Part shown: positions 19,895 through 35,810 of the stretch, in pieces | How positions within the stretch are numbered: the first letter of the stretch is position 1 | How the letters are laid out: each line of letters starts with the position of its first letter | Assembly (NCBI GenBank): GCA_029882995.1 | Contig: JAOUJV010000001.1 | Location: 11,668-75,667 of the forward strand | DNA length: 64,000 nt | Reading direction: 5' to 3' | From: Gammaproteobacteria bacterium | GTDB lineage: Bacteria; Pseudomonadota; Gammaproteobacteria; DAOVJZ01 | The notes under the pieces: model-generated | What the model was told of the DNA's origin: nothing | The model's database searches: none | Seen by the model: the letters and a program-made list of their open reading frames with translations, nothing else | Program-made: the position numbers and the translations under genes

Positions 19895-21502
19895 TTATTC
19901 CGGATAATTAAATGACAATATGACCTGCGTGCCTTCACCGGGCTCGCTTTCAATAGTCAATGTTGCCTTGATACGTTGTGCGCGTTCCTGCATCACAGAT
20001 TGACCAATATGATGACCTCCAGATGAAAGTGATGTTTCTTCCTCTACAACGCCGACACCATCATCTTCAATCAAAATACGATACTGACCTTTGCCATTAC
20101 AGTGAAGCATAATGCGGGCAGTGTGAGCCTGACTGTGTTTTTTAATATTGGCCAATGATTCCTGAATAATACGTAATATCTGCACTTCATAATCAGGTGG
20201 TAAATCTATATCACGACAATCTTTATGCAAGAACACCTTTATGTCTGTTTGTTTTTCAAACTGACTGACAATTTCCTCAAGTGCCGGCACAAGACCGCGC
20301 TCATCCATTCGAATACGGAAGTGGGACATGAGTTCACGCAATTCTTTGTTGGCATGCTCAAGTCCATTTTCGATTTTTTCAATTTCTTCAAGTGCCATTT
20401 TATTATCTACTTGCTGGAGTGTCATATCGAGCATGCGCACCTGAAAGCGTAAGCTGGCAAAGGTTTGCGCCAGTGAATCATGTAGTTCGTTTGCCAGCAT
20501 GGCGCGTTCCTGCATGATTGAAAGACGCTGTGTTTCATGGTCAAGTCGTGATTTTTCGATTGCCAGCCCCAGATGTCGACCCAGACCGGTTAAGAGTTCC
20601 TGAATATCTTTATCGTTGGCGCTGGAATCTGACTCAACAAATAATTTACAAATGCCGACGTTTTTGTCGTGATGCTGAAGTGGTACTGCAATCATGCGCA
20701 GTAACTTTCCTTTATGCAGGGGTTGCGCAATATTGACGGGATAATTTTTCAGTTTTGTATGGCTGAGGATTTCACCTTCTGAAATCTGGTTACCTATCAT
20801 ACAGGCTTCGGAACTGATTAACTGGAATTTTTCGACAATGTCCTTTTCCAGCCCCTTGCTGGCGAGCAGTTTCAGTTTTCCTTCCGGTGTCAGTAATCGA
20901 ATACTGCCAGCGCGCGCAGACACAATATCCATTAACGTATCAAGCGTTCTTTCAAGCAGGTCATTCAGATCTCGGGATACATTTAATCTGGCTGCGACAT
21001 CATATAACACTTCCAGCGATCGTGTTTTTTGTGCCAGATTGCTGGTTTGCATGGCAACCATTTCATCTACATTATAAACAAGTGCGCTGTATTCCTTGCC
21101 GAAACGATTGAGTTCATCAATCAGATCCCACAGATGGCCTTTCTCATCCTGATCAATTTGTGCAAAGAACTCACCACCATGCATGCTGTGCGCCCATCTT
21201 TGAATGTCACGCAACGGGTGCAATAGATATTTGTATATACGATAGATAATAAGTGCGGTGATACCGAGCAAGCCTATGGTTGCTGTCATTAACAGCGGTA
21301 TGAATATCTCTGTACTGTTATTGTAAAAAACCTGCAGTGAGGCAATGGTGATTACCAGTAACAATAGTGAGAATACGATTAACGGTTGTGCCAGACGTGA
21401 TTTGACTATCCAGTCGTGAATAATATTTCTGGCATCACTGTTTTTTTGCCAGGCATTGACCTGAATTTCAGAATTTACTGGCTTTCCATCGACTGAGGGC
21501 AT
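19895..21502 (-). CDS. narX: NarX/NarQ-like nitrate/nitrite sensor histidine kinase (HisKA_3 + HATPase)
   Basis: Two N-terminal TM helices and H-box ANELHDSLAQTFASLRF. The ATPase domain carries GxGxG boxes. Adjacent to narL. Confidence 0.75.
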   Translation of the reverse strand: MPSVDGKPVNSEIQVNAWQKNSDARNIIHDWIVKSRLAQPLIVFSLLLLVITIASLQVFYNNSTEIFIPLLMTATIGLLGITALIIYRIYKYLLHPLRDIQRWAHSMHGGEFFAQIDQDEKGHLWDLIDELNRFGKEYSALVYNVDEMVAMQTSNLAQKTRSLEVLYDVAARLNVSRDLNDLLERTLDTLMDIVSARAGSIRLLTPEGKLKLLASKGLEKDIVEKFQLISSEACMIGNQISEGEILSHTKLKNYPVNIAQPLHKGKLLRMIAVPLQHHDKNVGICKLFVESDSSANDKDIQELLTGLGRHLGLAIEKSRLDHETQRLSIMQERAMLANELHDSLAQTFASLRFQVRMLDMTLQQVDNKMALEEIEKIENGLEHANKELRELMSHFRIRMDERGLVPALEEIVSQFEKQTDIKVFLHKDCRDIDLPPDYEVQILRIIQESLANIKKHSQAHTARIMLHCNGKGQYRILIEDDGVGVVEEETSLSSGGHHIGQSVMQERAQRIKATLTIESEPGEGTQVILSFNYPE

Positions 21503-21630: not shown

Positions 21631-21957
21631 TTAGGTTGAGGTGTTTTCTTCTGATACGGTTTGTTGGGCAGGGTCATTAGGGTTGATAAAAATGAACTGG
21701 AACTCGCCCGGCGTTAACTCAACAAAATCCAGGGTTGTACCACGCAGGAGTGGAACATGTTCGTCATAGATAATCACTTCGATTTCTTCTGAAACCACTT
21801 CCATATCGCTCGGGCCTTTGTCATCAAAACCCATTCCATACTCAATCGCACCTTCCTGATTCTTTTTCGCGGCCAGTCGCAGGGACATTTTTTCCATATT
21901 GCCTTCTTTCGCAGCGGTGCGAATCTGGGCAGCAGCTTGAGGTGTAATCGTAATCAT
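21631..21957 (-). CDS. dsrR: DsrR (IscA/HesB-like A-type carrier homolog lacking the conserved cysteines)
   Basis: Starts MITITPQAAAQIRTAA with an IscA-like fold signature but no Cys. Last gene of the dsr operon, directly after dsrN. Confidence 0.7.
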   Translation of the reverse strand: MITITPQAAAQIRTAAKEGNMEKMSLRLAAKKNQEGAIEYGMGFDDKGPSDMEVVSEEIEVIIYDEHVPLLRGTTLDFVELTPGEFQFIFINPNDPAQQTVSEENTST

Positions 21958-21961
21958 GTGT

Positions 21962-23344
21962 CTATTGTAACCTTTCCTGTTTAATTTTTCGCGCAAAGTT
22001 GATAAATCGTTCAGCCCAATGATTGCTTTCAACATCTCGCAGATGCAAATAGCAGGCTGTCATATTCTTGTGTACGATACCGTCATTTCTGCCATTAACG
22101 CCATATCCACGCAGGATCTTGTAGCTATATCGGGTGTTAATAGGCAGTTTTTCCAGACCTGAGTAATGAAACTCATGCGCTGAATACTCTTTTGATTCCG
22201 ATTCTGAATCCCACAAACCCTTACCGGTTTCGCGTATTCGCACATAACCACGTCCTTGTGGTTTTTCATGCATTACAGTATCGGCCGGTATAACACCGAC
22301 CATGTCGGCGGTCTTGCCGTTCCAGCTTATGGAGCGGGACAGGTACATTAAACCACCACATTCTGCATAAGTCGGTAACCCGGCCTCAATTTTATCGTAA
22401 ATTTCCTTTTTGAGCGATGTGTTGGCTGCCAGAGAGTCCATGTGAGTTTCAGGGAATCCTCCGCCAATAAAGAGGGCATCAATATCAGGGAGGTGAGTAT
22501 CTTTTAAGGTATTGAACGGAACAAATTCAGCGCCGGCATTTTTGAGTGCTTCCAGATCACCGTCATAGTAAAAACCGAATGATTCATCCATGGCAATACC
22601 GAGCTTGATATCGGGGGCATGCGTCTGCACAGACTGTGCTGTGACTGAACTGATATCGGGTGAGGTTTTCTGCGCAATGGCATCGAGGCTATCCAGATCA
22701 ACCTGTTGCTCAATCAGATGACAAATTTCATTAATGCGTTGATCCGATGTTTGTTCCTCGTTACTCGGAATAAGCCCCAGATGACGTTCAACGATATTGA
22801 GTTTTTTATCGTAATGCACAGCACCTAATACTGGCACATCAGTGTAGTGTTCAATGACAGCCCTAAGCTTGGATTCATGCCGTGAACCGCCGAGATTGTT
22901 AAGGATCACACCATTTATATTAATGTCCTTGTCGAAATCCTGATAACCACGAATAAGTGGTGCAACACCACGCGTCATACCACGTGCATCTATCACCAGA
23001 ATAACCGGTGCCTTTAGAAGATGGGCAAGGGCGGCATTACTATTACTGCCGTCCAGATCGAGACCGTCATAGAGTCCTTTGTTGCCTTCGATAATACTGA
23101 TATCAGACTGGGTGTCGAAGCGATTAAACGTAGCGAGAATTTCTTCATTCGACATGAGGTAAAAATCGAGATTATGACAAGGGCGATTTGCCGCCTTTTT
23201 CAGCCACATGGGATCAATATAATCCGGGCCTTTTTTAAAGGGCTGAACAATTTTTCCACGTCGGGTAAAAGCAGCACACAGGCCAAGCGACACGGTAGTT
23301 TTACCGGATGATTTATGTGCGGCTGAAATGAGCAGTCGGGACAT
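21962..23344 (-). CDS. dsrN: DsrN, cobyrinic acid a,c-diamide synthase (CbiA/CobB) homolog (siroheme amidase)
   Basis: 460 aa with a P-loop SSGKTTVSLGL and a C-terminal glutamine amidotransferase domain. Position in the dsr operon. Confidence 0.85.
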   Translation of the reverse strand: MSRLLISAAHKSSGKTTVSLGLCAAFTRRGKIVQPFKKGPDYIDPMWLKKAANRPCHNLDFYLMSNEEILATFNRFDTQSDISIIEGNKGLYDGLDLDGSNSNAALAHLLKAPVILVIDARGMTRGVAPLIRGYQDFDKDININGVILNNLGGSRHESKLRAVIEHYTDVPVLGAVHYDKKLNIVERHLGLIPSNEEQTSDQRINEICHLIEQQVDLDSLDAIAQKTSPDISSVTAQSVQTHAPDIKLGIAMDESFGFYYDGDLEALKNAGAEFVPFNTLKDTHLPDIDALFIGGGFPETHMDSLAANTSLKKEIYDKIEAGLPTYAECGGLMYLSRSISWNGKTADMVGVIPADTVMHEKPQGRGYVRIRETGKGLWDSESESKEYSAHEFHYSGLEKLPINTRYSYKILRGYGVNGRNDGIVHKNMTACYLHLRDVESNHWAERFINFARKIKQERLQ

Positions 23345-23443
23345 GGTGTCTTGTTTCCTGTTATAAGTTATTTACAGCCTTTCGATAGCTGCGGGTCTCA
23401 GACAAAAGACCGTATTAACAGGAACTAAGTATAGTACGTATGA

Positions 23444-24652
23444 TTACGCTGTTTTATGGTGAGGGTCTACGTCTGAATCAGCCAAAGAAGCAGGCAGGAA
23501 TGGCATTATTTTGATAGCGAATGTCACTGCTGCCAATGCCAGTGCAATACCACCAATACCAAGTCCGATTTCATAAATGCTTGGTGTGTAGCTGTTGATG
23601 ACACCATCATAAAATGAGCTGGTTATTTCCTTGCCTGGGAACAGTATCAATGGATAGGCTTGTCCACCAATGATAATGGTATACATAAGTGCAAGACCAC
23701 CAAGAACAACCAGTATCGCGCCTAATGCAACCAGTGTGCGATTCTTACCCATTGGGCTATAAAAAATGGCAAGCGGAATGAGACCACCGATGACAACAGC
23801 ACCCAACCAGAATATCTGTGTATAAATTCCGCCATTCATCAGAATAAAGGCTTCAACACCATGGTGTTCAGTGGCATATAGATTAGTCAGATGATAGGCC
23901 AGCAGGAAGTAGAGCACAGCGGCCACAAACACGCCCAGCAGGTTCTTCAGTCGATGGAAGACAGCATCGCCCAGTTGACGACCTGTCCAGCCATAGGCGG
24001 CCATAAGAACCAGCATAAAGATAGCCAGACCATATGAGAATGACATGATAATAAACATCGGGGCCATAATGGCAGCATCATAACCCTGACGAGCAACAAG
24101 GAAGCCAAAGATAGAACCAGTACCTGTTGTCAGGATAAGACGCCAGATAAAGGCGCTGACACCGGCTTTATGTGAATGTTTGTTCATGCGGCGTTCCATC
24201 ATGGTCCAGAGATAAATGGCCACAATTACGAAAAAGCCGTTATACAGAATAATGTTCCAGGCAAAAATAGATTTGAAATTATAATTGGTCATCGCAACGA
24301 TCAGGCGATCAGGGCGACCTAAATCAAGCACCAGTACCGCCAGCCCGCCTGCCAGCAATGTAAGGGCAAGTAATGCAGACAGTCTGCTCAAAGGTTTATA
24401 CATTGGTTTACCAAACACAGACGCAATGGATGCAACATTAAGTGCACCGGATGCAGCGACAATCAGGAACACAGCAAAAACGTGAGGAGTGCCCCAGACG
24501 ATCTGGTTATTCATGCCAGAGATATAGTGACCATGGTGCTCCATCATATAGAAGGCAATGCCGGCCAGACCCATAATGGCACCAAAGATGGCTAACAAGG
24601 CCCAGTAACCTAAACTGTCGCCTTCAATGGAGGTATAAGTAACATGTTTCAT
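23444..24652 (-). CDS. dsrP: DsrP, NrfD-type integral membrane protein of the DsrMKJOP complex
   Basis: 402 aa polytopic membrane protein following dsrO. Confidence 0.85.
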   Translation of the reverse strand: MKHVTYTSIEGDSLGYWALLAIFGAIMGLAGIAFYMMEHHGHYISGMNNQIVWGTPHVFAVFLIVAASGALNVASIASVFGKPMYKPLSRLSALLALTLLAGGLAVLVLDLGRPDRLIVAMTNYNFKSIFAWNIILYNGFFVIVAIYLWTMMERRMNKHSHKAGVSAFIWRLILTTGTGSIFGFLVARQGYDAAIMAPMFIIMSFSYGLAIFMLVLMAAYGWTGRQLGDAVFHRLKNLLGVFVAAVLYFLLAYHLTNLYATEHHGVEAFILMNGGIYTQIFWLGAVVIGGLIPLAIFYSPMGKNRTLVALGAILVVLGGLALMYTIIIGGQAYPLILFPGKEITSSFYDGVINSYTPSIYEIGLGIGGIALALAAVTFAIKIMPFLPASLADSDVDPHHKTA

Positions 24653-24676
24653 AAATATCTCCGGAATCCCTGTTTA

Positions 24677-25444
24677 TTATATGCCGCGGTAACGAACACC
24701 AGTGTTCAAACCAAGGTCGGCGCGAATCTGAGCACTGTTGTACTCGCGCAGTTGTTTTGATATTTCGCTGTTAGGGTCATTCAAGTTACCAAACACAATC
24801 GCGTTATGACCGGCTTTTGAACAGGCTTCCGCACAGGCTGTAGTACGACCGGCATCGACACGGTGGACACACATAGTGCAGGATTCAACAGTTCCCTTGC
24901 CACGTGGTGCATGTTCTTTTTGATCAGTAATAGTCTCGTGTATGAATGAACGTGCTTTATACGGGCAGGCCATCATGCAATATCGACAGCCGATACAGAT
25001 ATGCTTGTCTACAAGCACGATACCATCCGCACGTTTCATTGAAGCGCCAGTTGGGCAAACATCGACACAAGGTGGTGTTTCGCAATGCTGACACATCACA
25101 GGCAAGCTGGTTGTTTTGCCGGTTTGATTGTCTTTTAAATCAACTTTTCGAATCCATTGTGGATCTGTAAGAGGGCGATCATTTGTGCCAACACCGTTTT
25201 CGGTATGGCATGCAGTGACACAGTCATTACAGTCAGAAGCACATTTATTGGCATCAATCAGCATTCCCCAACGGTTTTCACTTGATGCACCTTTACCGTC
25301 AATTTTGACTGACTCACCAACATGCGCATGAGCTACAGAGTAGAGCATGACGCCGGGTGCGATAGCTACAGTTGCAGCTGCACCGGTTGCTTTACCTAAA
25401 AATTCACGTCTGTTCGGGTCGTGTTTTTTTACGTTGCTACTCAT
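24677..25444 (-). CDS. dsrO: DsrO, periplasmic ferredoxin-like FeS protein with Tat signal
   Basis: RREFLGKATGAAA twin-arginine motif and multiple CxxCxxCxxxCP clusters. Confidence 0.85.
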   Translation of the reverse strand: MSSNVKKHDPNRREFLGKATGAAATVAIAPGVMLYSVAHAHVGESVKIDGKGASSENRWGMLIDANKCASDCNDCVTACHTENGVGTNDRPLTDPQWIRKVDLKDNQTGKTTSLPVMCQHCETPPCVDVCPTGASMKRADGIVLVDKHICIGCRYCMMACPYKARSFIHETITDQKEHAPRGKGTVESCTMCVHRVDAGRTTACAEACSKAGHNAIVFGNLNDPNSEISKQLREYNSAQIRADLGLNTGVRYRGI

Positions 25445-25447
25445 ATA

Positions 25448-25909
25448 TTAATTATCCGTTGTGTTCTGGTTCTGGACCAGTTTATTTAACAGAACCGAGT
25501 CATTGTCGTTATGAGAATGACTCATATCATGCGAGCCTTGTTGAGGCTTTGTTGCATGACACTCGAAACAGTCAAGTTTGACGCTGGCATAACTGTGACA
25601 GCTTTGACAGAACTGACCTTCATCTGTAATCGAAACAAATTGTCCTGCATCGTCTTTCTTGGCATGGCAGGCAATACATTCTTTAAGGCTGAATTCCTTT
25701 GTGCGTACACCTTCGCGCAATGTCTTGTCACGCTTGTGCGACAGATAATGCATGTGGTTTTTACGCATATCATCAGCAGGTCTAACGCATTGCTCACCTT
25801 TGCCCTTGGTGATTTCAGGCATTGGAACACGACTGTTCTCGGCAACTGCTGGCAGACTGGCAAAAACCAGTCCGAGCAGCGCGATAAAAAATAGTCGTAT
25901 ATTTTTCAT
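25448..25909 (-). CDS. dsrJ: DsrJ, triheme periplasmic cytochrome c
   Basis: Start MKNIRLFFIALLG (signal peptide) chosen because the longer ORF would overlap dsrL. Three heme sites CIACH, CQSCH, CFECH. Confidence 0.8.
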   Translation of the reverse strand: MKNIRLFFIALLGLVFASLPAVAENSRVPMPEITKGKGEQCVRPADDMRKNHMHYLSHKRDKTLREGVRTKEFSLKECIACHAKKDDAGQFVSITDEGQFCQSCHSYASVKLDCFECHATKPQQGSHDMSHSHNDNDSVLLNKLVQNQNTTDN

Positions 25910-25910
25910 T

Positions 25911-27908
25911 TTATTCACCAAGACCCATCTGGATATAGCCAGTCGGGCAGACTTCAGCACAGATGTGACAACCGATACAGCGGTTGTAGTCAGTGTAAAC
26001 ATAACGACCCATTGTTGATTCGTTCTTCGGTGTTTTGTGAACGGCATCTTGTGGGCAGTAGATGACACAGTTGTCACACTCAAAACACATACCACAGCTC
26101 ATACAACGACCAGCTTCGGCTTGTGCCTGTTCTTCTGTCAGACCTTCTACACGTTCTTCAAAGTGACCAAGGACTTCTTCTGAAGATGGAACATTCTCTA
26201 CACGCTTGTTGCGTTCTTCAAATGAGAAGTGACCAAGGAAAAGATCCTTCGCCTTGATGATTTGACTGCCTGAACGGTCATCATAGTTATGTACCGCGTA
26301 ACCACCAACAGCCTTACCTTCTTCTGAAGTACCGCGACGACCACGATCAATGGCGCGTACACTTGGATCACCTTCGGGATCAAACTGAGCTGGCTCATGA
26401 CCGGTTTCACGTAGTTTGTCGAGTAGATTGAAGTGGTGCACATCTACTTTTGGACGTTTGCCAGTTGCTTCATTCTTGAAGTAATGATCAATGCTGTCTG
26501 CAGCAACCGATGCCTGACCAATCACAGTAGTGAGCAGGTGAGGGCGTACAATATCACCACATACAAAATAACCTGGCTTGTTAGGAACCTGGAAGTGGCT
26601 ATCAGCGTCAATCAGACCGCGATCATTACCAAAGCTTTCAAATCCTTCAAGATTACCGGACTGACCAATAGCAGAAACAATCAGTTCAGCAGGGATATCA
26701 AATTCTGAACCTTCAATAACTTCACCCTTGCCATTGGAGTAATCCATCTTGGCAACACGCAGGGCAGTCGCGCGACCGTCTGCACCCATGATAACTTCAA
26801 CCGGGTTCAGCGAGCCCTGAATTTCAACACCTTCACGCAGTGCATCATCAATTTCATGTTGTGCAGCGTTCATTTTTTCAATTGGCTGACGTGAAATCAG
26901 CATTACTTCGGCACCGGATTTCTTCGCAACAGTAGCTGCATCATGTGCAGTCTGTCCAAGAATAATATGCTCGGCACGTTCATTTTCATTTTTAGCTGTG
27001 ATGTTACCGATACGACGGGCAACAGAGGCAACGTCGATAGATGTATCACCACCACCGACAACAACTACCTTGCCGGAAACAGCTTGCAGACGGCCTTCGT
27101 TAAATGCAGCCAGGAAAGAGACGCCGCTAATACAGTTAACAGCATCAGCGCCTGGAATTGGCAGACCACGACCAGCTTGTGCGCCAATAGCAAACAGAAC
27201 CGCATCAAATTCTTTTTCGATATCTTCAAGTTTGACGTCTGTACCAACACGAGTGTTCATGCGTGTTTCAACACCCATATCGATAATACGGTTCATTTCA
27301 CCATGAAGAACATCACGTGGAGTACGGTAACCAGGAATTCCGTACATCATCATTCCGCCGAGTTCCTTGTGATCGTCAAAAATAGTGGCGCCATGACCCA
27401 TGCGACGTAATTGATAGGCCGCGGCCAGACCAGCAGGACCACCACCTATAATGGCTACTTTTTTACCTGTGTCTTTTCCAGCAGTGAACTTCAGCTTGTT
27501 TTCTAGCGCTGAGTCACCAATAAACTGTTCGATAGAGTTGATTCCAACAAAATCTTCAACTTCATTACGATTACAACCATCCTGACATGGTGCCGGACAA
27601 ACACGACCCATAACAGACGGGAACGGGTTGGCATTGGTTGAACGACGGAATGCATATTCCTGCCAGCTCATGTCACCTGTTGGTTTTTCTATACCACGAA
27701 CAATATTCAACCAGCCGCGAATATCTTCACCTGAAGGACAACTGCCCTGACAAGGTGGTGTCTGGTGAATATAGGTCGGGCATTTGTGAGAAGTATCTGC
27801 GACAAAAATCTTGTCATGCATTGATCCCCACTGATGATCGCCATCCTCATATTTACGAAATGTAAATCCTTCGAGGTTCTTTTCCATATCTTTCTTTGAA
27901 GTTGCCAT
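25911..27908 (-). CDS. dsrL: DsrL, NAD(P)H:acceptor oxidoreductase (GltD-like flavoprotein with FeS and ferredoxin domains)
   Basis: 665 aa with GGGPAGLAAA dinucleotide motifs and C-terminal CIGCHICAEVCP. Confidence 0.85.
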   Translation of the reverse strand: MATSKKDMEKNLEGFTFRKYEDGDHQWGSMHDKIFVADTSHKCPTYIHQTPPCQGSCPSGEDIRGWLNIVRGIEKPTGDMSWQEYAFRRSTNANPFPSVMGRVCPAPCQDGCNRNEVEDFVGINSIEQFIGDSALENKLKFTAGKDTGKKVAIIGGGPAGLAAAYQLRRMGHGATIFDDHKELGGMMMYGIPGYRTPRDVLHGEMNRIIDMGVETRMNTRVGTDVKLEDIEKEFDAVLFAIGAQAGRGLPIPGADAVNCISGVSFLAAFNEGRLQAVSGKVVVVGGGDTSIDVASVARRIGNITAKNENERAEHIILGQTAHDAATVAKKSGAEVMLISRQPIEKMNAAQHEIDDALREGVEIQGSLNPVEVIMGADGRATALRVAKMDYSNGKGEVIEGSEFDIPAELIVSAIGQSGNLEGFESFGNDRGLIDADSHFQVPNKPGYFVCGDIVRPHLLTTVIGQASVAADSIDHYFKNEATGKRPKVDVHHFNLLDKLRETGHEPAQFDPEGDPSVRAIDRGRRGTSEEGKAVGGYAVHNYDDRSGSQIIKAKDLFLGHFSFEERNKRVENVPSSEEVLGHFEERVEGLTEEQAQAEAGRCMSCGMCFECDNCVIYCPQDAVHKTPKNESTMGRYVYTDYNRCIGCHICAEVCPTGYIQMGLGE

Positions 27909-27941
27909 GTTTTCTTCTCCTACTATCAGGAAAACTATAAG

Positions 27942-29441
27942 TTATTCTTTGGTTCCCAGCTGAATAGCATTGCTAACCAGCGCATGCAAACTGCCAATCA
28001 TGTGCATAGGGAAATTGTAATAGGGTAATGTTTTGCTGAACTGACTCTTGCAAATCGCGCAAATTGCGACGAGATGATTGACGTCATGATCATCAACAAC
28101 CTGTTTTAGTGCCTGCATACGTGGCATTGCACCTTTCACACGTAATTCCATAAGGTCATCAGTCAACAGACCGCCGCCACCGCCACAACAGAAGGTGCTT
28201 TCGTGAATTGTTTCAGGAGCCATATCAAAGAAATTATTGGCCACTGCTTTAATTACTTCACGCGGAAGTTTGAATTGACCGCCTGGCATATTACCCATGC
28301 GTGAGGCACGTGCAACATTACAGGAGTCATGGAAAGTGATTCTGAGATGATCGTTGGCTGATTTATCAAAATTAAGAGCGCCACGCTGGATCAAATCATG
28401 TGTTACCTCAACAATGTGTTGGGGAACCGGATATTTGGGGTCAAGAAAATCAAACGGACCTGCCAGTGTATTCAGGAAGCTGTATGCAACACGCCATGCG
28501 TGACCACATTCACCAATAACGATACGTTTAACTTTTAGTTCAATTGCCGCCTCACGAATACGCATGGCAACCTTGCGCATGTTGTCATAACTGCCGATAA
28601 ACATACCAAAGTTTGCTGCTTCAGAAGCATGAGAACTGACAGTCCAGCTGATACCCGCCTGATGGAAGACCTTGCCATAACCAATCAATCCGTCAACATG
28701 TGGTTCTGCAAAGAAGTCAGCAGAAGGGGTGACCAGTAATACATCAGCACCTACGACATCAACAGGATACTTAACATCTATTCCAGTGTCGTCCTTAACT
28801 TCTTCTTCCAGGCCTTCCATTGTATCTATGAGAGCAGGACCCGGCAGACCAAGGTTGTTACCAATCTTGTATACCTTGCCAATAATTTCATTACAGTATT
28901 TTTGACCCATGCCAATGCTATCAAGAATTTCACGTGCTGCCATTGATACTTCGGCAGTATCAATACCGTAAGGACAGAAGACAGAACAACGACGGCATTG
29001 TGAGCATTGATGGAAATAACTGTACCAGTCATCAAGCACTTCTTTGGTTAAGTCGACCGCACCAACCAGTTTTGGAAAATACTTGCCGGCAAAGGTGAAA
29101 TAACGACGATAAACAGCACGCAACAGGTCCTGACGTGCTACAGGCATGTTTTTCGGATCACCAGTACCGAGGAAGTAGTGACACTTGTCAGTACAGGCAC
29201 CACACTTTACGCAACTATCCAGGTATACCTGCAGACTGCGATATTTCTTTAAAAGCTCGCCCATCTTGGCGATAACTTTGTCTTTCCAGTCATCAGGTAG
29301 CTCGCCGGGAAAGCCGAGATCTTCCTGAAACTCTGCCTTGGCAATAAACGGTTTGCTGTGCGCCATTGAACCGACCTGTATTGCCGGTATCTCAGGGAAT
29401 TCCTTCAGTTCTGGAGTTTCAAATTCAGCCTTCGCCACCAT
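27942..29441 (-). CDS. dsrK: DsrK, HdrD-like catalytic FeS subunit (CCG domains)
   Basis: 499 aa with Cys-rich CCG motifs (CxxCxxC..., FCCGGGGG). Confidence 0.88.
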   Translation of the reverse strand: MVAKAEFETPELKEFPEIPAIQVGSMAHSKPFIAKAEFQEDLGFPGELPDDWKDKVIAKMGELLKKYRSLQVYLDSCVKCGACTDKCHYFLGTGDPKNMPVARQDLLRAVYRRYFTFAGKYFPKLVGAVDLTKEVLDDWYSYFHQCSQCRRCSVFCPYGIDTAEVSMAAREILDSIGMGQKYCNEIIGKVYKIGNNLGLPGPALIDTMEGLEEEVKDDTGIDVKYPVDVVGADVLLVTPSADFFAEPHVDGLIGYGKVFHQAGISWTVSSHASEAANFGMFIGSYDNMRKVAMRIREAAIELKVKRIVIGECGHAWRVAYSFLNTLAGPFDFLDPKYPVPQHIVEVTHDLIQRGALNFDKSANDHLRITFHDSCNVARASRMGNMPGGQFKLPREVIKAVANNFFDMAPETIHESTFCCGGGGGLLTDDLMELRVKGAMPRMQALKQVVDDHDVNHLVAICAICKSQFSKTLPYYNFPMHMIGSLHALVSNAIQLGTKE

Positions 29442-29448
29442 GAGCTCC

Positions 29449-30183
29449 TTAGTTCTTTGATTCCAGTTGTGCTGCCCAGGGAGATAAATGGCGCTGTTCG
29501 CGTGGGTTATCTACCTGATTACGTGTTGGACTAAAGAAAACGCCCGGTGCGTGAAGCAACTTACTGATAGGGAAAATAATCATGAGTAATGCAACTGACG
29601 CCAGATGAACCATAAGAATTGGATCTTCAGGCATTGGTTGAATATCAAAATAAACAAGACCCAGTGTATAGGCCTTAACAGCAACAATGTCAGTGTGCTC
29701 AACAAACTTCATCAGCAACCCGGTTACAGCGATACCAATAATAAGGAGCAGCATAAGATAATCAGACGGGGCTGAAATGTAGCGAATACGCTCTACAAAA
29801 ATACGGCGGCCAAACAGACCGATAAGGCCAATCAACATGCCAAACCCGGCGTAAATACCGATTGGCTGTATCAATGTAATCAGGCCTGCAACTGGCTCCA
29901 TGAAATAACGTAAGTGACGAGCAAGTACCGCCCACATTGCCATGTGGAAAGTCCATCCGAAAAGCCATATCCATTTATTGGACTTAAACAGGCTCTCAAA
30001 CAGAATAACTTCTCGCAACAATCTGTAAACAACACCTGATCTTGTCGTTGGAGCAGGGGTTGTAGGAATCTTTAAAGGCGCCGGGGCCGAAGCAAATATA
30101 TATATTTTACGAGCAACACCCACAATAAGGATTGCTGTCGCAAAATAAAATAAAACTGTATATATAGTCGTTATCAATGACAT
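29449..30183 (-). CDS. dsrM: DsrM, membrane di-heme cytochrome b (NarI/HdrE-like)
   Basis: ATG at 30183 (MSLITTIYT) preceded by a GGAG RBS. The longer ORF extension is implausible. ~244 aa, five TM helices. Confidence 0.8.
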   Translation of the reverse strand: MSLITTIYTVLFYFATAILIVGVARKIYIFASAPAPLKIPTTPAPTTRSGVVYRLLREVILFESLFKSNKWIWLFGWTFHMAMWAVLARHLRYFMEPVAGLITLIQPIGIYAGFGMLIGLIGLFGRRIFVERIRYISAPSDYLMLLLIIGIAVTGLLMKFVEHTDIVAVKAYTLGLVYFDIQPMPEDPILMVHLASVALLMIIFPISKLLHAPGVFFSPTRNQVDNPREQRHLSPWAAQLESKN

Positions 30184-30253
30184 CTGGTCATGATCTCCGC
30201 GCAAAATTAGAAGCGGGGGCAGTGTTTTTGCCCCCGATATCAATAGGCTGTGA

Positions 30254-30589
30254 TTATACGCAACCTGTTGGCTTTGGAAGGCCAGCGTACTTACATGCTT
30301 GCTTCGCAGGGCCGTATGGGAACAGTTCGTACAGGTACTTGCTGTTACCTTTATCTGGACCCAGTTTCTTGCCAATTGCCTTGGTCAGAACGCGAACCGC
30401 AGGAGCAATTTGATATTCTTCATAATATTCACGCAGGAAATTAATAACTTCCATATGGTTATCGGTCAGCTCACAGTCATCCAGCTTGGCCATTGCTTCA
30501 CCAATTTCCATAGTCCAATCAGCACGGTTTTCCAGATAACCTTCTTCATCTACTGCAATACTTTTACCGCCAACTTCAATAGTAGCCAT
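30254..30589 (-). CDS. dsrC: DsrC, sulfur-carrier substrate of DsrAB/DsrK
   Basis: 111 aa ending [13 protein letters not shown] with both conserved C-terminal cysteines. Confidence 0.92.
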   Translation of the reverse strand: MATIEVGGKSIAVDEEGYLENRADWTMEIGEAMAKLDDCELTDNHMEVINFLREYYEEYQIAPAVRVLTKAIGKKLGPDKGNSKYLYELFPYGPAKQACKYAGLPKPTGCV

Positions 30590-30625
30590 GTTTAAATCTC
30601 CTCATCAACAAAACAAATTATTCAA

Positions 30626-30931
30626 TTAAAGCCAGGACTGCACTTTGTCATATTCAACAGTCAAATCGACAAAGCCGTTATAGTCAACTAACTGTATACC
30701 ATCTATTACTCGACCCTTGATGCCACGTGAGTCAAGGTCAGCTTCAAGCGCATAGATTTTTACATCTTTCATTGCGCCTTTTACCTTGTCTTCAATGACA
30801 GAGCCCTTGATTCCGCCATAAACGCCATCTTCAATAAGCAGAATAGCGCTGCCTTTATCACATGTACGCATGCAACGCTCGAGAGAGTTGCGATCAAATG
30901 GTGATTTATTCACTGTATGTAACATATTCAA
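30626..30931 (-). CDS. dsrH: DsrH
   Basis: 101 aa in the conserved dsrEFH position; DsrH/TusB-like. Confidence 0.8.
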   Translation of the reverse strand: MNMLHTVNKSPFDRNSLERCMRTCDKGSAILLIEDGVYGGIKGSVIEDKVKGAMKDVKIYALEADLDSRGIKGRVIDGIQLVDYNGFVDLTVEYDKVQSWL

Positions 30932-30937
30932 TATCCC

Positions 30938-31312
30938 CTAGAAATTAAGAAGCACATCCATTTCAGTCATCATTTTGGTGACTTCTTCATTACTCTTGAC
31001 TTCAACAGGGATGATTAAGTCATCTGCTGTGAGCCCACGTACTTCCATGGATTCCTTTTCAACATAGATTTTTTCAACATCGTACATTTCAAGGGCACGG
31101 TAAGTAGGAGAAAAATTCTTTACTCCAAGTGCTTTTGTGTCCTGTTCTTTCTTTAACTGGAACACACCATCATCCAGAAACATCATGTAAACATCTTGCT
31201 CGAATGCCGCACCGATGAGTACAACTTCAAGTGCTTCAAGTGCGTATATAGTACCGTAAGGTGCTTTACGGTTTACATACATAATCTTTTTAGTCTCGCC
31301 AGCTTCTTCCAT
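30938..31312 (-). CDS. dsrF: DsrF
   Basis: 124 aa DsrF/TusC-like protein in the dsrEFH position. Confidence 0.8.
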   Translation of the reverse strand: MEEAGETKKIMYVNRKAPYGTIYALEALEVVLIGAAFEQDVYMMFLDDGVFQLKKEQDTKALGVKNFSPTYRALEMYDVEKIYVEKESMEVRGLTADDLIIPVEVKSNEEVTKMMTEMDVLLNF

Positions 31313-31332
31313 TAGTATGTCTCCCGTATCAA

Positions 31333-31725
31333 TTAATCACCAAACACAACCATGCGATCTGCCTGAATACTTGCTTCAAGCAATTGCCCCAGTCCCGAAA
31401 TGCGAAACCCTGGTGCAATATTATCTGCATCTTTACCATTACGTTTGGATTCATCTGCATCAGCAATGCCACGACGTTGCGCGGCGGCAACACAAATTAC
31501 AAGATCGATTTCGTGCTTTTCAGCCAACGCACTCCAGCGATTGACAATATTTCGATCGTCCTGCGGTGGTGTTGTCAGGCGAGTGCCATTATTAACACCA
31601 TCATGATAGAAAAAGATGCGATAGATCTCGTGGCCCTTTTCCAGAGCTGCCGCAACAAAGTTGTATGCTGAGTCCGACGCCTGATGCGTGTACGGACCTT
31701 CATTAACCATAATGCCGAACTTCAT
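31333..31725 (-). CDS. dsrE: DsrE, sulfurtransferase subunit with active-site Cys
   Basis: 130 aa starting MKFGIMVNEGPY with the ICVAAA active-site Cys motif; DsrE/TusD family. Confidence 0.85.
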   Translation of the reverse strand: MKFGIMVNEGPYTHQASDSAYNFVAAALEKGHEIYRIFFYHDGVNNGTRLTTPPQDDRNIVNRWSALAEKHEIDLVICVAAAQRRGIADADESKRNGKDADNIAPGFRISGLGQLLEASIQADRMVVFGD

Positions 31726-31774
31726 ATACTATCCCCTAGTACGTTTAGTTTAAGAGCTGAATGCTGCACAAATC

Positions 31775-32848
31775 CTAGAAACGGATATGTGCAGATGCAT
31801 TCAGACTGTTACGAGCGCCACGCCAGTTATCGATGTGGAACTTCGTAAACGGCAGTTCAGTTAGTTCAAAGAAGCGTGGCCAGCCAATACGTTCAACCCA
31901 GTCACCGATACGCTCCCAATCCTGAGCATCCTTTTTATAGACGGCAAGGATGTTCTTGACGATTTCAGCAACCTCAGGCCAGCGAGGTGCATTGTTAGGA
32001 ATGCCTGCTGCCACAAGTTTATGGAACATTGGTTTGCTACGCGCATTTGAATGTTTACCACCAATCCAGATAGCCAGCTTGGTGAATTCAGAATCATTAA
32101 TCTGCATAGGAGGGCATGGAGGGAAACATGCACCGCAACAGATACATTTCTTCTCATCAACTTCAAGTGAAGGCTTGCCGTTAACCATGGCAGGACGAAT
32201 CGCAGCTACCGGGCAACGTGCAACAACTGATGGACGTTCACATGCATTAGCTACCAGATCATGATTAATCTTTGGTGGCTTTGTGTGTTGAACGTTAATC
32301 GCGATATCACCCTGACCACCACAGTTAATCTGGCAGCAGGAAGTAGTGATATGAACGCGGTTAGGCATTGTTTCATTAGTATATTCTTCATACAGCTCAT
32401 CCATCAGTGCCTTAACAACACCAGATGCGTCTGTACCAGGAATGTCACAGTGCAACCAGCCCTGTGTGTGAGAGATCATTGTCACTGAAGGACCAGTACC
32501 ACCAACAGGGTAACCGGCATCTTCGATGGCCTTAATCAAAGGTTCAACCTTTGCTTCATCAGTTACCATGATTTCCATGTTACTGCGGATTGTAAAGTGA
32601 ACATAACCTTCACCGAATTCATCAGCGATATCACACAGAAGGTTGATTTCGTATGGACCTAATTGACGCTGGGTACCGAAACGAACTGTCCATACCTTGT
32701 CGCCGCTTTTCGCAACGTGCATAAGTACACCAGGACGTAAACGCTCATGATATGACCATGCGCCATAGTTATTAAGGAACACCGGGTGCATGTATTGAAA
32801 TGCATCTGGTACACCACTTTCGATTGGATGACGAGGAGTTTCTGCCAT
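31775..32848 (-). CDS. dsrB: Dissimilatory sulfite reductase beta subunit (reverse, oxidative type)
   Basis: Start MAETPRHP with a GGAGG RBS. Siroheme/FeS Cys motifs and a ferredoxin insert CPVAAIRP...CICCGACF. ~357 aa. Confidence 0.92.
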   Translation of the reverse strand: MAETPRHPIESGVPDAFQYMHPVFLNNYGAWSYHERLRPGVLMHVAKSGDKVWTVRFGTQRQLGPYEINLLCDIADEFGEGYVHFTIRSNMEIMVTDEAKVEPLIKAIEDAGYPVGGTGPSVTMISHTQGWLHCDIPGTDASGVVKALMDELYEEYTNETMPNRVHITTSCCQINCGGQGDIAINVQHTKPPKINHDLVANACERPSVVARCPVAAIRPAMVNGKPSLEVDEKKCICCGACFPPCPPMQINDSEFTKLAIWIGGKHSNARSKPMFHKLVAAGIPNNAPRWPEVAEIVKNILAVYKKDAQDWERIGDWVERIGWPRFFELTELPFTKFHIDNWRGARNSLNASAHIRF

Positions 32849-32928
32849 TATTGCCTCCCAAATTATACGTTTGTAATCTTTGTTTAATGGCCTGCAGACA
32901 AGCAGGCCATTCACTCATTAGTAATTAA

Positions 32929-34245
32929 TTAGCCAGCCTTGCGAGCTTTCCACTTTTCAGCTTCAGCATCCCAATCGTCCATACGGACATAAGAACTCTG
33001 ACGTGCACTGCTAATCATGTTTGGATCCGGCTCAATACCGATACCTTCCAGGAAGTTAACCAGACCAATACGCTCAATTGTTTCACCAGTACGTTCGTGC
33101 TCAAGCGCATTTTCCGCCCAGAAATCAATGATTGTTTCAGCTAGTTCTTTCAGTGCTTCATAATCATCATCAGATTCCAGCTTCATGAATGGAACAAGAA
33201 CTGTACCCATAGTGTCACCAATCTTCAGGGTACGCTTACCACCCAGCAGAATTGTTACACCCTTGTCATCACCCGGGCTCAGTGCCTTGGTCATAACGTT
33301 GATACAATGCATGCAACGTACACAGTTACGGTTATCAACAGCCAGTGTGTCGTCATCATTCAATGACAATGCTTTAGTCGGGCAACGACTTACAACGTTA
33401 TCAACAATGTATTTACGACCCTTGTCAGCAACGTACTTCTTGACTTCTGCCTGATCAACTTTCATATCATCACGCCATGTACCAATTACAGCGAAGTCAG
33501 AACGCTGAATTGAGTTCATGCAGTCATTCGGGCAACCGGATACCTTGAACTTGAATTTGTATGGAAGAGCAGGGCGATGCATGTCATCCATAAAGTTATT
33601 AACAAGCAGACGGTGAATTTTTTGTTCGTCACAATTTGATTGTTCACAACGTGCTGCACCGATACAGGACATACCAGTACGTACGCATGGGCCGGCACCA
33701 CCAAGGTCCCAACCGTATTCGTTGATTTCATCAAAGAATGTTTGCACGTTCTGAGTAGTTGTACCGATAAACATAATGTTGCCTGTCTGTCCGTGGAATG
33801 CAATCAGACCAGAACCATGCTTATCCCATGAATCGGAAAGCTGGCGTAACATTTTTGTAGAGTAGTGATTACCAGCAGGTGGTTGCACACGAATAGTGTG
33901 GAACTCTTTAGATTCTGGGAACATAGGTTTGCCATCTGTACCCATCAATTCTGTAAAGCGAGGAATAATACCGCCGCCGTAACCAAAGACAGAAACCGTA
34001 CCACCTTTCCAGTAACCAAGACGTGTCTTGTAGGAATGCTCCAGCTGTCCAAGAAGGTCAACCATCATATTGCCAAACTTGTCTTGCATTGCCAGGCGCT
34101 TAAGACCTGTTACAAAGCTTGGCCAAGGACCTTTTTCCAGCTCATCCAGATTAGGAGTATTGTGGAATGGCTTGGATGATTTCTTCTCTGAAGGAAGATA
34201 AGTACAGTGCTTCTCAGGATTCTTTGGTTTGTCTGTTGCACTCAT
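32929..34245 (-). CDS. dsrA: Dissimilatory sulfite reductase alpha subunit (reverse, oxidative type)
   Basis: ATG at 34245 with an AGGAGG RBS. ~438 aa with siroheme-FeS binding Cys motifs. First gene of the operon. Confidence 0.92.
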   Translation of the reverse strand: MSATDKPKNPEKHCTYLPSEKKSSKPFHNTPNLDELEKGPWPSFVTGLKRLAMQDKFGNMMVDLLGQLEHSYKTRLGYWKGGTVSVFGYGGGIIPRFTELMGTDGKPMFPESKEFHTIRVQPPAGNHYSTKMLRQLSDSWDKHGSGLIAFHGQTGNIMFIGTTTQNVQTFFDEINEYGWDLGGAGPCVRTGMSCIGAARCEQSNCDEQKIHRLLVNNFMDDMHRPALPYKFKFKVSGCPNDCMNSIQRSDFAVIGTWRDDMKVDQAEVKKYVADKGRKYIVDNVVSRCPTKALSLNDDDTLAVDNRNCVRCMHCINVMTKALSPGDDKGVTILLGGKRTLKIGDTMGTVLVPFMKLESDDDYEALKELAETIIDFWAENALEHERTGETIERIGLVNFLEGIGIEPDPNMISSARQSSYVRMDDWDAEAEKWKARKAG

Positions 34246-34655
34246 TAGCAACTACCTCCTGTTTCAATTCGTTATTAACGTTATATAAACGGCGCGTACA
34301 GCACCCCATAAAAAAGCTGGGCGAATTGTAGTAAGTGTGTATGCCGCTTAGGAATTCATCTTTAGGGGTGTTTTACCTACCCCCTACCTATCCCAAACGG
34401 GATATAAGCAACCGATGTTTTGGAGTAATTGATTGATTTCAATAGTAATTACAGCAAAGCATCTTGAAGGCGCAGAATTATAGGTAAATCTTAAGGTTAT
34501 TGCACGCATTATTTCACTGGGTATTATGAGGGGGATTATATTGAGCAGGCAGTAATAATAGACGTCGTTCCAATTCCTGAGTAAAATGTTAGGGTATATT
34601 AGTTGTCATATATTTTAAGTGAGCTATATATGCCATTGTTAATAAAGAAGATATT

Positions 34656-35576
34656 ATGTCGCCAGTAGTCCAGATAAAGGTAGCGCCACCCCAAATTGAC
34701 AGCCCGTTTCATCTTGATAATGAAAAGGGGTATCAACTTTGGCGCGAGCAAAAACGGGATAACTACCCGTCAAAACCGGAAGAGTTGTTGGTTTCTGTCT
34801 CTGATCCCTTCCATATCACTGTCGACGAGCGAGGGCAGATTTTGTCGCTGTGCAGTAAGACAAATATCTCTATATATAGAACCTCACTTGAAGGAGTAGC
34901 TGATAAGGAGATCCCCAGAGCTATTGGCCATGCCTTTGGCCTGAATCGACTTGACCCGAATATGTTGGCAGATGATGATGGCATTACTTCATTGCAGGTT
35001 GTGGCCGGCAAGTCTGTGCGTGGCTACATACCGTATTCAAATAAACGGCTACTGTGGCATACCGATGGCTACTACAATACGACTGAACAGCAGATACGCT
35101 CTATTATTCTGCATTGTGTCACTCCGGCATCTGGTGATGGGGGCGAAAACGGGTTATTGGATCATGAAATGGCCTATATCCTGCTTCGAGACAGAAACCC
35201 CGACTTTATTCAGGCATTGATGGCACCGGATGCAATGACAATTCCGGCAAATGAGGAAGCGGCTGAACAGGACAGAAAATCAGTTACAGGCCCGGTGTTT
35301 TCGGTTGATTCTTCCGATGGCAGTCTCCATATGAGATATACAGCCCGTACCCGCAGTATCATATGGAAAGATAATGAAGTCACCCGTAAGGCAGTTGCGT
35401 TTTTAGGCGACTTACTCGAAAACGGCAATGACTATATATTCAATTACAAGTTGCGCGCAGGAGAAGGACTGATTTGTAACAATGTCCTGCACAAAAGAAC
35501 TGCATTTGAAAATACAGAAGGTGCAGATCGTTTGTTATATCGTGCGCGTTATTATGACCGTATCAAGCATACATAA
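34656..35576 (+). CDS. TauD/TfdA-family Fe(II)/2-oxoglutarate-dependent dioxygenase
   Basis: 306 aa with LLWHTDGYYN (HxD iron ligands) and a distal His. Divergent from dsrA. Confidence 0.6.
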   Translation: MSPVVQIKVAPPQIDSPFHLDNEKGYQLWREQKRDNYPSKPEELLVSVSDPFHITVDERGQILSLCSKTNISIYRTSLEGVADKEIPRAIGHAFGLNRLDPNMLADDDGITSLQVVAGKSVRGYIPYSNKRLLWHTDGYYNTTEQQIRSIILHCVTPASGDGGENGLLDHEMAYILLRDRNPDFIQALMAPDAMTIPANEEAAEQDRKSVTGPVFSVDSSDGSLHMRYTARTRSIIWKDNEVTRKAVAFLGDLLENGNDYIFNYKLRAGEGLICNNVLHKRTAFENTEGADRLLYRARYYDRIKHT

Positions 35577-35606: not shown

Positions 35607-35810
35607 ATGTTATACCTGAGCGAAATATTAATGCAGCACCATGAAATAAACACTTTTGAAGAATTGCTTAAGATCATTCCTGTGGTTGCAAAAGAAAAAG
35701 GCGAAATATTTATGCATATTGATGTTAAACCACAATATGCTGATGTGCCTGCAAACTGGGAAGATAAATTAGAGGGCGCGTTTGCTGGTGTTCACTCAGT
35801 TACAAATTAA
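35607..35810 (+). CDS. small hypothetical protein
   Basis: 67 aa ORF in the same orientation between the dioxygenase and downstream genes. Confidence 0.3.
   Translation: MLYLSEILMQHHEINTFEELLKIIPVVAKEKGEIFMHIDVKPQYADVPANWEDKLEGAFAGVHSVTN

Follow-up and report, generated by a model that had tools for sequence, protein, structure and literature searches.

What controls the genes of the reverse dissimilatory sulfite reductase (Dsr) pathway? To our knowledge their regulation is largely unresolved, the known leads being DsrR, DsrS and the binding of DNA by DsrC in Allochromatium vinosum. The question is raised again by a stretch of 64,000 nucleotides (contig JAOUJV010000001.1, called the window here) from an uncultured sediment gammaproteobacterium, which contains a dsrABEFHCMKLJOPNR operon. 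We are highly confident that this is a reverse (oxidative) Dsr sulfur-oxidation cluster and that it is embedded in a larger conserved unit, for which we infer accessory functions. The flanks of the cluster (a sensor kinase and response regulator, a palindrome and a divergently transcribed operon) are conserved and linked to dsr. The two accessory modules flanking dsr are apparently undescribed, and three candidates for dsr regulation emerge from them: the kinase and regulator attached to dsrR, the operator-like palindrome, and the divergent operon with its homologue of the CRISPR endoribonuclease Cas6.

The operon consists of 14 intact, co-directional genes on the minus strand, between positions 21631 and 34245, as seen from their open reading frames and their NCBIfam matches (Table 1). 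Its sequence contains no frameshifts, has a GC content of 45.1% and leaves gaps of 1–99 nucleotides between the genes. Probable start codons are located at positions 34245 (dsrA), 32848 (dsrB), 30925 (dsrH), 30183 (dsrM), 25909 (dsrJ) and 21957 (dsrR). DsrA and DsrB are encoded by adjacent genes and both score above the curated cut-offs. In the alignment of DsrE to PDB entry 2hy5_A the cysteine region VCVAAAQRRG is retained, the DsrC of the operon has both conserved C-terminal cysteines and DsrR has none. The DsrMKJOP membrane complex is complete: orthologues of DsrM contain the Pfam domain Nitrate_red_gam, DsrJ has three CxxCH haem motifs (at residues 78, 101 and 114) and the amino-terminus of DsrO carries the twin-arginine (Tat) motif RREFL. 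DsrM, DsrJ and DsrP score under the cut-offs of NCBIfam models trained on sulfate reducers, yet these models are their best matches. DsrL is made up of Fer4_20, FAD/NAD-binding and C-terminal ferredoxin domains. An earlier note on this stretch had described the operon as complete and as ending in a siroheme amidase gene (dsrN) and an IscA-like, cysteine-free dsrR; the matches in Table 1 bear out both statements.

In A. vinosum, the C-terminal cysteines of DsrC receive sulfane sulfur in persulfide form, handed on by rhodanese-type carriers and by DsrEFH. The DsrC-bound sulfur is oxidised to sulfite by DsrAB, which contains a sirohaem-amide made by CysG and DsrN. DsrMKJOP delivers the electrons to the quinone pool and DsrL delivers them to NAD+, while expression is modulated post-transcriptionally by DsrR. 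The earlier note had taken dsrEFH and dsrL as marks of the oxidative type, and the data agree with it: the oxidative markers dsrEFH, dsrL and dsrR are all in the cluster, the gene order is that of A. vinosum, and the DsrA identities point the same way. The spacing between dsrB and dsrE is 49 nucleotides, which leaves no room for dsrD at its usual site, and no match to DsrD was found among the open reading frames scanned in the window, mostly those of at least 100 residues. DsrA is 72–93% identical to 54 DsrA sequences of loci in genome bins that bear the names of sulfur-oxidising taxa (Acidiferrobacterales, Sulfuricaulis, Thiohalobacter, Thiogranum, Thiohalocapsa and others), compared with 45–49% to three reductive DsrA of solved structure (from Archaeoglobus, Desulfovibrio and Desulfomicrobium). 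The lowest identity inside the set named as sulfur oxidisers (68%) is higher than the highest identity between the two sets (50%). A neighbour-joining tree of DsrA, drawn without A. vinosum or any other oxidative reference organism, splits the same two sets. Grouping with the reductive enzymes, the outcome that the earlier note had named as refuting its reading, was thus not seen in the tree and identities obtained with this limited reference set.

That the system runs reductively or in disproportionation, with sulfite being reduced instead of sulfur being oxidised, is extremely improbable. DsrAB, DsrC and DsrMKJOP are found in both directions, DsrL can serve reduction too (PMC11406059) and the preference of DsrM, DsrJ and DsrP for models of sulfate reducers was mentioned above; against this stand the presence of dsrEFH and dsrR, the lack of a dsrD following dsrB, the A. 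vinosum-type gene order, the DsrA identities, and the nearest solved proteins of DsrE, DsrC and DsrR, which are those of A. vinosum.

On the other side of the control region, the divergent operon contains genes for a TauD-like dioxygenase, a small acidic protein (sm67), a helical-repeat protein (unk235), a Cas6/Cmx6 homologue (Cas6L), a DsrC-family protein without cysteines and a rhodanese. The AT-rich control region of about 400 bp in the earlier note has the dimensions given in Table 1. The same note had seen a TauD-like dioxygenase across from dsrA. Its assignment to the TauD/TfdA family stands, with the iron-binding triad H135-x-D137...H279 conserved; the gene opens a conserved multi-gene operon, in which the Cas6 homologue had been missed. 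For unk235 2725 homologues were found, none of them in a known family, and a fold search with its model gives weak TPR- and Rap-like matches. The sm67 protein has no match in Pfam, NCBIfam or PADLOC.

To a collection of one genome per species, patterns specific to this Cas6L clade were applied, and at least 508 contig stretches were found to encode a relative. Neighbourhoods were counted in the best 80 of these at least 508 loci, each time using those with enough flank. Nearly all of the 80 come from bins labelled Gammaproteobacteria, many named as sulfur-oxidising taxa. A divergent dsrA lies within 5 kb of the Cas6L gene in 43 of 50 loci; in another three, dsr genes adjoin it or lie a little beyond that distance. 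The sm67 gene is near Cas6L in 72 of 75 loci, the cysteine-less DsrC gene in 58–61 of 65, the TauD-like gene upstream in 62 of 71 (those that lack it include the loci named Thiocapsa and Thiohalocapsa), the unk235 gene in 46 of 75 and the rhodanese gene in 20 of 60. Within 10 kb, a PKHD-type dioxygenase is encoded in 33 and a DUF6866 protein in 30 of 44 loci. Three loci (L001–L003) have the same gene order beside dsr, and on contigs encoding Cas6 relatives of 73% and 50% identity this order adjoins dsrABEFHCMKL. In two loci (L009 and L021) the Cas6-like module abuts dsrE with no dsrAB between them, suggesting a rearranged cluster with dsrAB elsewhere. A protein of 188 residues without assignment (positions 43175–43741, plus strand) and a Sel1-repeat protein (42587–43024, minus strand) also recur within 10 kb in many related loci.

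Cas6L exceeds the curated Cas6/Cmx6 thresholds (Table 1), and its profile matches PDB entry 8fcj_B, the Cas6 of a type I-B CRISPR-associated transposon (CAST), with an E-value of 8e-22. Its AlphaFold2 model has a predicted local distance difference test score (pLDDT) of 84 and is matched by Foldseek to 8fcj_B and 8fcu_B (type I-B Cas6) with TM-scores of 0.73–0.81; numerous further structures of Cas6 and Cse3 rank after these. In the predicted structure, a double ferredoxin-like (RAMP) fold and the conserved G-rich loop can be recognised. Judged by sequence and by modelled fold, the Cas6 assignment is one of true homology. Among 1.84 billion cluster representatives, Cas6L has 891 relatives with E-values up to 1e-3 and 158 with E-values up to 1e-30, and it is at most 52% identical to any sequence of the best 80 loci. 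Residues common to Cas6L and true Cmx6 proteins are His34, Arg89 and Pro91, and the G-rich loop LQxxGLGxxxxxGCGxF. All 204 sequences compared have His34, which belongs to a DH motif where helix 1 begins, the location usual for the catalytic histidine of Cas6; by analogy with other Cas6 enzymes it is the putative catalytic residue. An insertion, SGNGWMRPExPD, and a KMxCG motif are restricted to the dsr-linked clade, the insertion being present in 92 of the best 150 relatives.

Since the thresholds are passed, the fold is that of Cas6 and the relatives are annotated in databases as CRISPR-associated, Cas6L might be thought a decayed remnant of a CRISPR-Cas system, or a chance neighbour of dsr with no role in sulfur metabolism. 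This is very unlikely. Conservation reaches at least 97% at about 35 residues across the 204 sequences, the overall identity of which is 44–73%, and this is too much purifying selection for a remnant. The relatives are spread over the at least 508 contig stretches mentioned, and the best 80 loci keep the gene in its position between the sm67 or TPR-like gene and the DsrC-like gene, beside dsrA. True Cmx6 proteins, in contrast, are just 25–28% identical to Cas6L, are without the NGWMRP insertion and are encoded in cas operons with arrays. No CRISPR array and no homologue of another cas gene was found in the window or in 83 loci (10 kb to each side), with a detector that recovered the array of Gloeothece as a positive control. 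With the putative catalytic histidine, conserved basic residues and the G-rich loop all retained, Cas6L is likely a domesticated protein that binds or cleaves hairpin RNA, with a dsr-regulon transcript as its target.

Besides the dsrC of the operon, the window contains two further DsrC-family genes. One of them, encoded directly after Cas6L, resembles DsrC, TusE and RspA in belonging to the DsrC fold family and in having a C-terminal arm with the GLP motif. It differs from canonical DsrC in that glycine stands at both redox cysteine positions (KQGGR...KGGY versus KQACK...TGCV), which makes sulfur carriage or trisulfide chemistry impossible for it. Among its orthologues, the last 15 residues are free of cysteine in 68 of 70, and conservation of the C-terminus GLP...RKGGY is at least 95%. 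In the family named DsrC/TusE/RspA, the RspA branch presumably lacks both cysteines as well, and our protein may belong to that branch.

At the other end of the cluster, dsrR is followed by a HisKA_3-type sensor kinase and a response regulator with REC and GerE domains. No terminator-like site was found by a terminator scan in the 128 nucleotides between dsrR and the kinase gene. When metagenomic dsrR loci that extend downstream of the gene by 1.2 kb or more were inspected, orthologues of the kinase (36–48% identity) and the regulator (52–64%) were located directly after dsrR, on the same strand, in about 25 of the 51. As the pair occupies this position in about half of these loci, it is part of an extended dsr cluster. 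The pair is thus a conserved extension, and looks like a dsr-linked regulator. The earlier note had described the next gene as a NarX-like kinase: a kinase does follow dsrR, but its sensor domain is a GAF domain, no NarX sensor domain being detected, and it is not an unrelated neighbour.

The best NCBIfam matches of the kinase are NarQ and NarX and that of the regulator is NarL, and nirS and a cytochrome c gene lie immediately beyond on the other strand, so that a true nitrate- or nitrite-sensing NarXL pair, tying dsr expression to denitrification, might be considered, in line with the suggestion of the earlier note that sulfur oxidation is coupled to nitrate/nitrite respiration. We think this unlikely, given that the kinase scores far under the cut-offs (220 versus 553 bits for NarQ) and is covered only in part, the NarQ match comprising just the kinase core and the NarX match starting at residue 68. 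The regulator, too, remains under the NarL equivalog cut-off. GAF is the sole sensor domain detected in the kinase with Pfam, and the pair accompanies dsrR in many metagenomic loci whatever the nir genes.

The palindrome emerged when k-mers were surveyed in 54 intergenic regions that separate dsrA from the divergent operon. In the window, TATCCC-N4-GGGATA occurs as a perfect copy just once, at the position given in Table 1. At least ten of its twelve specified positions are matched in 37 of the 54 orthologous regions, compared with 1.6% of shuffled sequences, and the site is always located 140–376 nucleotides upstream of dsrA. TAYCCC half-sites are enriched 3.8-fold (91 observed, 24 ± 4 in shuffles), their density being 3.4 per kb in the intergenic regions compared with 0.7 per kb in the loci overall. 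In the alignment with the intergenic region of the closest relative (L001), conservation is best in the dsrA-proximal half, between the palindrome and the ATG. The palindrome resembles the 7-2-7 heptamer consensus of NarL, TACYYMT-N2-AKRRGTA, and the NarL-family regulator encoded in the cluster is therefore the best candidate to bind it. Just three further copies (TAYCCC-N4-GGGRTA) were observed in 594 kb of the dsrR-centred loci (L144:11648, L154:2836 and L160:1861). These are located just after a putative dsrS and upstream of a conserved open reading frame of 152 residues that is helix-turn-helix-like by eye, which is followed by a gene for a product of ferredoxin-reductase type, also by eye. 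The window contains no homologue of the 152-residue open reading frame.

Instead of a NarL-type operator, the palindrome could be a site for the cysteine-less DsrC, by way of a helix-turn-helix, or it could be transcribed and form a hairpin with a stem of 6 bp and a loop of 4 nucleotides for Cas6L. We regard this as a real possibility, though a doubtful one. DsrC of A. vinosum was reported to bind DNA upstream of dsr, according to the passage of PMC5944118 in which that work is cited. The genes for the DsrC-like and Cas6-like proteins co-occur with the palindrome in all Cas6L-centred loci, and two loci named Thiohalocapsa (L050 and L076), which may lack the kinase and regulator after dsrR, have the palindrome as well. 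The size of stem and loop suits Cas6, the repeat of true Cmx6 having a short GC stem and a loop of 4 nucleotides (GCC-TTTC-GGC). However, the half-site variants TATCTC..GGGATA and TATCCC..GAGATA, when both are read in one sense, do not keep to one strand as G-U pairing would require, and this favours recognition as DNA. The additional TAYCCC half-sites nearby are like those of NarL promoters with multiple heptamers, the site reads TACCCCT-TT-GTGGGTA in some loci, in agreement with the NarL consensus, and a NarL-type regulator is encoded in the same cluster.

With the palindrome considered as an operator, the following mechanism can be proposed. The response regulator would bind the palindrome and co-regulate dsr and the divergent operon, Cas6L would bind or cleave a hairpin RNA of a dsr-regulon transcript, and the cysteine-less DsrC would use its conserved C-terminal arm to act as a partner or competitor without redox function. 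Extended to the whole clade, our proposal, plausible but tentative, is that a group of Cas6/Cmx6 proteins was exapted from CRISPR-Cas as a fixed accessory of reverse Dsr in many sulfur-oxidising Gammaproteobacteria, and may serve the dsr regulon either as a regulator that binds or cleaves RNA sequence-specifically or as part of a ribonucleoprotein. Together with the GAF kinase, the NarL-type regulator and the operator, it would supply the missing dsr regulatory circuit.

Several observations weigh against the proposal. An RNA substrate for Cas6L was not found when the hairpin between dsrC and dsrM, the spacer between the Cas6L and DsrC-like genes and the repeat of a true Cmx6 were compared. 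The structure of the hairpin recurs at the same position in other loci without conservation of the sequence, which gives it the look of a generic terminator or stabiliser; it fits an attenuator or messenger RNA stabiliser holding dsrABEFHC above the later genes. The spacer measures 32–431 nucleotides across loci and has no common motif in them. The Cmx6 repeat GTGATCAACGCCTTTCGGCATCAAAGGTTAAAGTAG shares with the palindrome just a generic likeness, a short stem with a loop of 4 nucleotides. Apart from tRNAs, no RNA family reaches its Rfam gathering score in the window. The link between regulator and palindrome rests on a resemblance to the NarL consensus, and the Cas6L-centred and dsrR-centred sets of loci do not overlap, the regulator and the palindrome being seen together in the window alone. 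If it is dsrS and not the kinase and regulator that follows dsrR in Thiohalocapsa, the link would weaken. Lastly, A. vinosum apparently has no DsrC-like gene beside dsrA, its DsrC paralogues having the locus tags Alvin_0028, 0345, 0732 and 1508, which implies that the accessory module is not essential for Dsr function.

If the proposal is true, it would describe a CRISPR-independent cellular function of a Cas6 endoribonuclease. If Cas6L acts on RNA of the dsr regulon, a CRISPR endoribonuclease would have been domesticated for core energy metabolism, and the automatic label "CRISPR-associated Cas6" would be misleading in many genomes of sulfur oxidisers. In the open-access literature searched, neither a link of Cas6 or Cmx6 to dsr, DsrC or sulfur oxidation nor a solo Cas6 of this kind is described.

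The earlier note had also stated that dsrS is absent. Metagenomes were scanned with an alignment of DsrR and the genes 3' of dsrR were inspected; in 14 loci an open reading frame of 365–399 residues comes right after dsrR on the same strand, with mutual identities of 52–81%. These were labelled putative DsrS by position and size only, the order fitting the dsrNRS of A. vinosum and the size agreeing with the length of DsrS. A profile of the 14 proteins gave no match in a six-frame translation of the 64 kb, confirming the absence for the window. The DUF6866 gene was suspected of being a dsrS that had moved, because it recurs near dsr in other genomes. This candidate was rejected: its product shows no similarity to the 14 putative DsrS proteins by blastp, tblastn or profile hidden Markov model. 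A search of the open-access literature found no source that calls DUF6866 proteins DsrS and no paper that mentions DUF6866. An identical DUF6866 protein is also encoded on contigs of several JGI and ENA metagenomes.

Table 1. Location and assignment of the features of the dsr locus and its surroundings, in order of position in the window (a dot marks features without a strand).
Feature	Position	Strand	Assignment and remarks
cysG (sirohaem synthase)	9984..11363	+	four Pfam domains of CysG
Bidirectional terminator-like hairpin	19194..19222	.	strong; after the regulator gene, closes the dsr and two-component unit
NarL-family response regulator	19224..19871	-	REC and GerE helix-turn-helix (Pfam); NF007935 NarL, 235.5 bits (cut-off 250)
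dsr-linked sensor kinase	19895..21502	-	535 residues; transmembrane segments, GAF, HisKA_3, HATPase_c (Pfam)
dsrR	21631..21957	-	108 residues, IscA-like; PDB 2k4z (A. vinosum DsrR), E 8e-29, 52% identity
dsrN	21962..23344	-	sirohaem a,c-diamide synthase, CobB family; TIGR00379, 452 bits
dsrP	23444..24652	-	NrfD-type membrane subunit; best match NF045798 DsrP; placed between dsrO and dsrN
dsrO	24677..25444	-	Tat-signal iron-sulfur protein; NF045797 DsrO, 319.3 bits (cut-off 200)
dsrJ	25448..25909	-	153 residues, signal peptide; NF038038, 66 bits, sole match
dsrL	25911..27908	-	665 residues, NAD(P)-binding iron-sulfur flavoprotein; PRK12771, 718 bits
dsrK	27942..29441	-	NF045796 DsrK, 602.9 bits (cut-off 400)
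dsrM	29449..30183	-	244 residues, NarI-like dihaem cytochrome b; NF038037 DsrM, 179 bits, best match
GC-rich hairpin and T-run	30214..30236	-	between dsrC and dsrM; terminator scan
dsrC	30254..30589	-	TIGR03342, 158.9 bits; PDB 1yx3 (A. vinosum DsrC), E 3e-54
dsrH	30626..30925	-	TusB/DsrH, 103.6 bits
dsrF	30938..31312	-	TusC/DsrF, 134.9 bits
dsrE	31333..31725	-	TusD/DsrE, 165.7 bits; PDB 2hy5_A (A. vinosum DsrE), E 1e-67, full length
dsrB	31775..32848	-	beta subunit, 357 residues; TIGR02066, 506.8 bits (cut-off 341.5)
dsrA	32929..34245	-	438 residues; ATG with AGGAGG 5' of it; TIGR02064, 599.7 bits (cut-off 392.85)
Divergent control region	34246..34655	.	410 bp, 36.8% GC
Palindrome TATCCCAAACGGGATA	34389..34404	.	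144-159 nucleotides upstream of the dsrA ATG; candidate operator
TauD/TfdA-family Fe(II)/2-oxoglutarate dioxygenase	34656..35576	+	PF02668, 70 bits
sm67	35607..35810	+	67 residues, acidic; 62-79 residues across loci
unk235, all-alpha TPR-like helical-repeat protein	35836..36543	+	235 residues; AlphaFold2 pLDDT 90
Cas6/Cmx6 homologue (Cas6L)	36550..37242	+	PF09559, 203 bits (cut-off 26.7); TIGR02807, 130 bits (cut-off 98.85)
Cysteine-less DsrC-family protein	37355..37693	+	PF04358, 119 bits; ends in GGLPESRRKGGY
Terminator-like hairpin	37706..37729	+	after the DsrC-like gene; terminator scan
Two-domain rhodanese (SseA/MST-like)	37751..38605	+	PF00581, two stretches; NF008557, 157 bits; active site CGSGVTA
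PKHD/YbiX-type Fe(II) dioxygenase	41921..42592	+	NF003974, 250 bits; recurrent neighbour
DUF6866 / Sfum_1244-family gene	43750..44793	-	Pfam and NCBIfam matches
Second two-cysteine DsrC paralogue	63545..63835	+	both C-terminal cysteines; far from the operon

The sirohaem synthase, rhodanese and extra DsrC genes that the earlier note had placed near the operon are all present (Table 1). It had also placed the operon among denitrification-type genes, of which nirS (cytochrome cd1, 380 bits) and a c-type cytochrome gene stand, the context otherwise being thin. Next to nirS, positions 11621–16541 of the plus strand encode an iron-sulfur protein, an NrfD-type membrane protein, a Tat-exported molybdopterin oxidoreductase (best match PhsA, under the cut-off) and a NapC/NirT-type cytochrome. 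From these matches, the cluster looks like one for a periplasmic enzyme resembling polysulfide, thiosulfate or tetrathionate reductases; its molybdoenzyme is Psr/Phs-like and not of the Nar or Nap type.

Farther away, a tRNA-Leu(UAA) gene is apparently split in the anticodon loop by an insertion of about 690 nucleotides, with the 5' half at 62517–62556 and the 3' half at about 63250–63296. A full-length match to a group I intron is located at 62540–62842 (32.3 bits in the E-value mode of Rfam, gathering threshold 50, E 2.8e-6). The PADLOC match of an antisense open reading frame of 154 residues (62641–63105) is to an HNH homing endonuclease (HEase, 98 bits). The split gene was missed by ARAGORN and by Rfam at the gathering threshold. 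A second 3' half similar to tRNA-Leu(UAA) is located at the start of the window (160–218). It is followed by an island of 33% GC (424–4928) with three genes matching the PADLOC candidate defence system PDC-M60 A/B/C (77, 72 and 224 bits), which looks like a defence island inserted beside a tRNA gene.

When compared with known systems, the kinase and regulator are similar to NarX and NarL in the HisKA_3 core, in the REC and GerE domains and in the likeness of the palindrome and extra half-sites to the NarL heptamer consensus. However, a GAF domain takes the place of the periplasmic nitrate-binding module of NarX, the scores to NarX, NarQ and NarL are all under the cut-offs, and the pair is genomically linked to dsrR and not to nar or nap genes.

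Cas6L is homologous, in sequence and in fold, to the Cas6/Cmx6 proteins of type I-MYXAN (type I-B-like) systems, such as that of the Gloeothece plasmid pP742402, and to the type I-B CAST Cas6 of 8fcj_B. Its identity to these is 23–28%, and SGNGWMRPExPD and KMxCG are extra. Where true Cmx6 genes are part of cas6-cas3-cas8-cas7-cas5-cas4/1-cas2 operons beside arrays, the Cas6L gene has no array, cas3, cas5, cas7, cas8, cas1, cas2 or cas4 nearby and is fixed beside dsrA.

The operon can be compared directly with dsrABEFHCMKLJOPNRS of A. vinosum (Alvin_1251–1265), with which it agrees in gene content and gene order from dsrA to dsrR. The similarity extends to the two cysteines of DsrC, to their absence from DsrR, and to DsrE, DsrC and DsrR as a whole, which are closest to the solved A. 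vinosum proteins. Differences are found in the flanks: the window has the kinase and regulator after dsrR instead of dsrS, and the divergent operon with Cas6-like and DsrC-like genes upstream of dsrA, which from the same locus tags is apparently missing in A. vinosum. This species is apparently without the modules found here.

Closer in composition are Sulfuricaulis limicola and Sulfurifustis variabilis, two Acidiferrobacterales which have dsrABEFHCMKLJOPNR with dsrS outside the cluster (PMC5024460), and Thiodictyon is also without dsrS according to its genome paper. The gammaproteobacterium of the window is a different organism from the former two. As the dsrS-less composition has been published for Sulfuricaulis and Sulfurifustis, this feature was already known. 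In both of these a dsrC-family gene is present five genes upstream of dsrA (SCL_1279 and SVA_1949; PMC5024460), the position of the cysteine-less DsrC gene in the window, and loci in Sulfuricaulis genome bins have the same divergent operon. The genes between dsrA and the upstream dsrC copy are not discussed in PMC5024460, and a DsrC-like copy is all that this paper and the Thiodictyon genome paper name near the cluster. The operon itself is an ordinary further member of a well-known system, and the dsrS-less type is routine; it adds one more uncultured sediment sulfur oxidiser of that type, and its interest lies mainly in the flanks.

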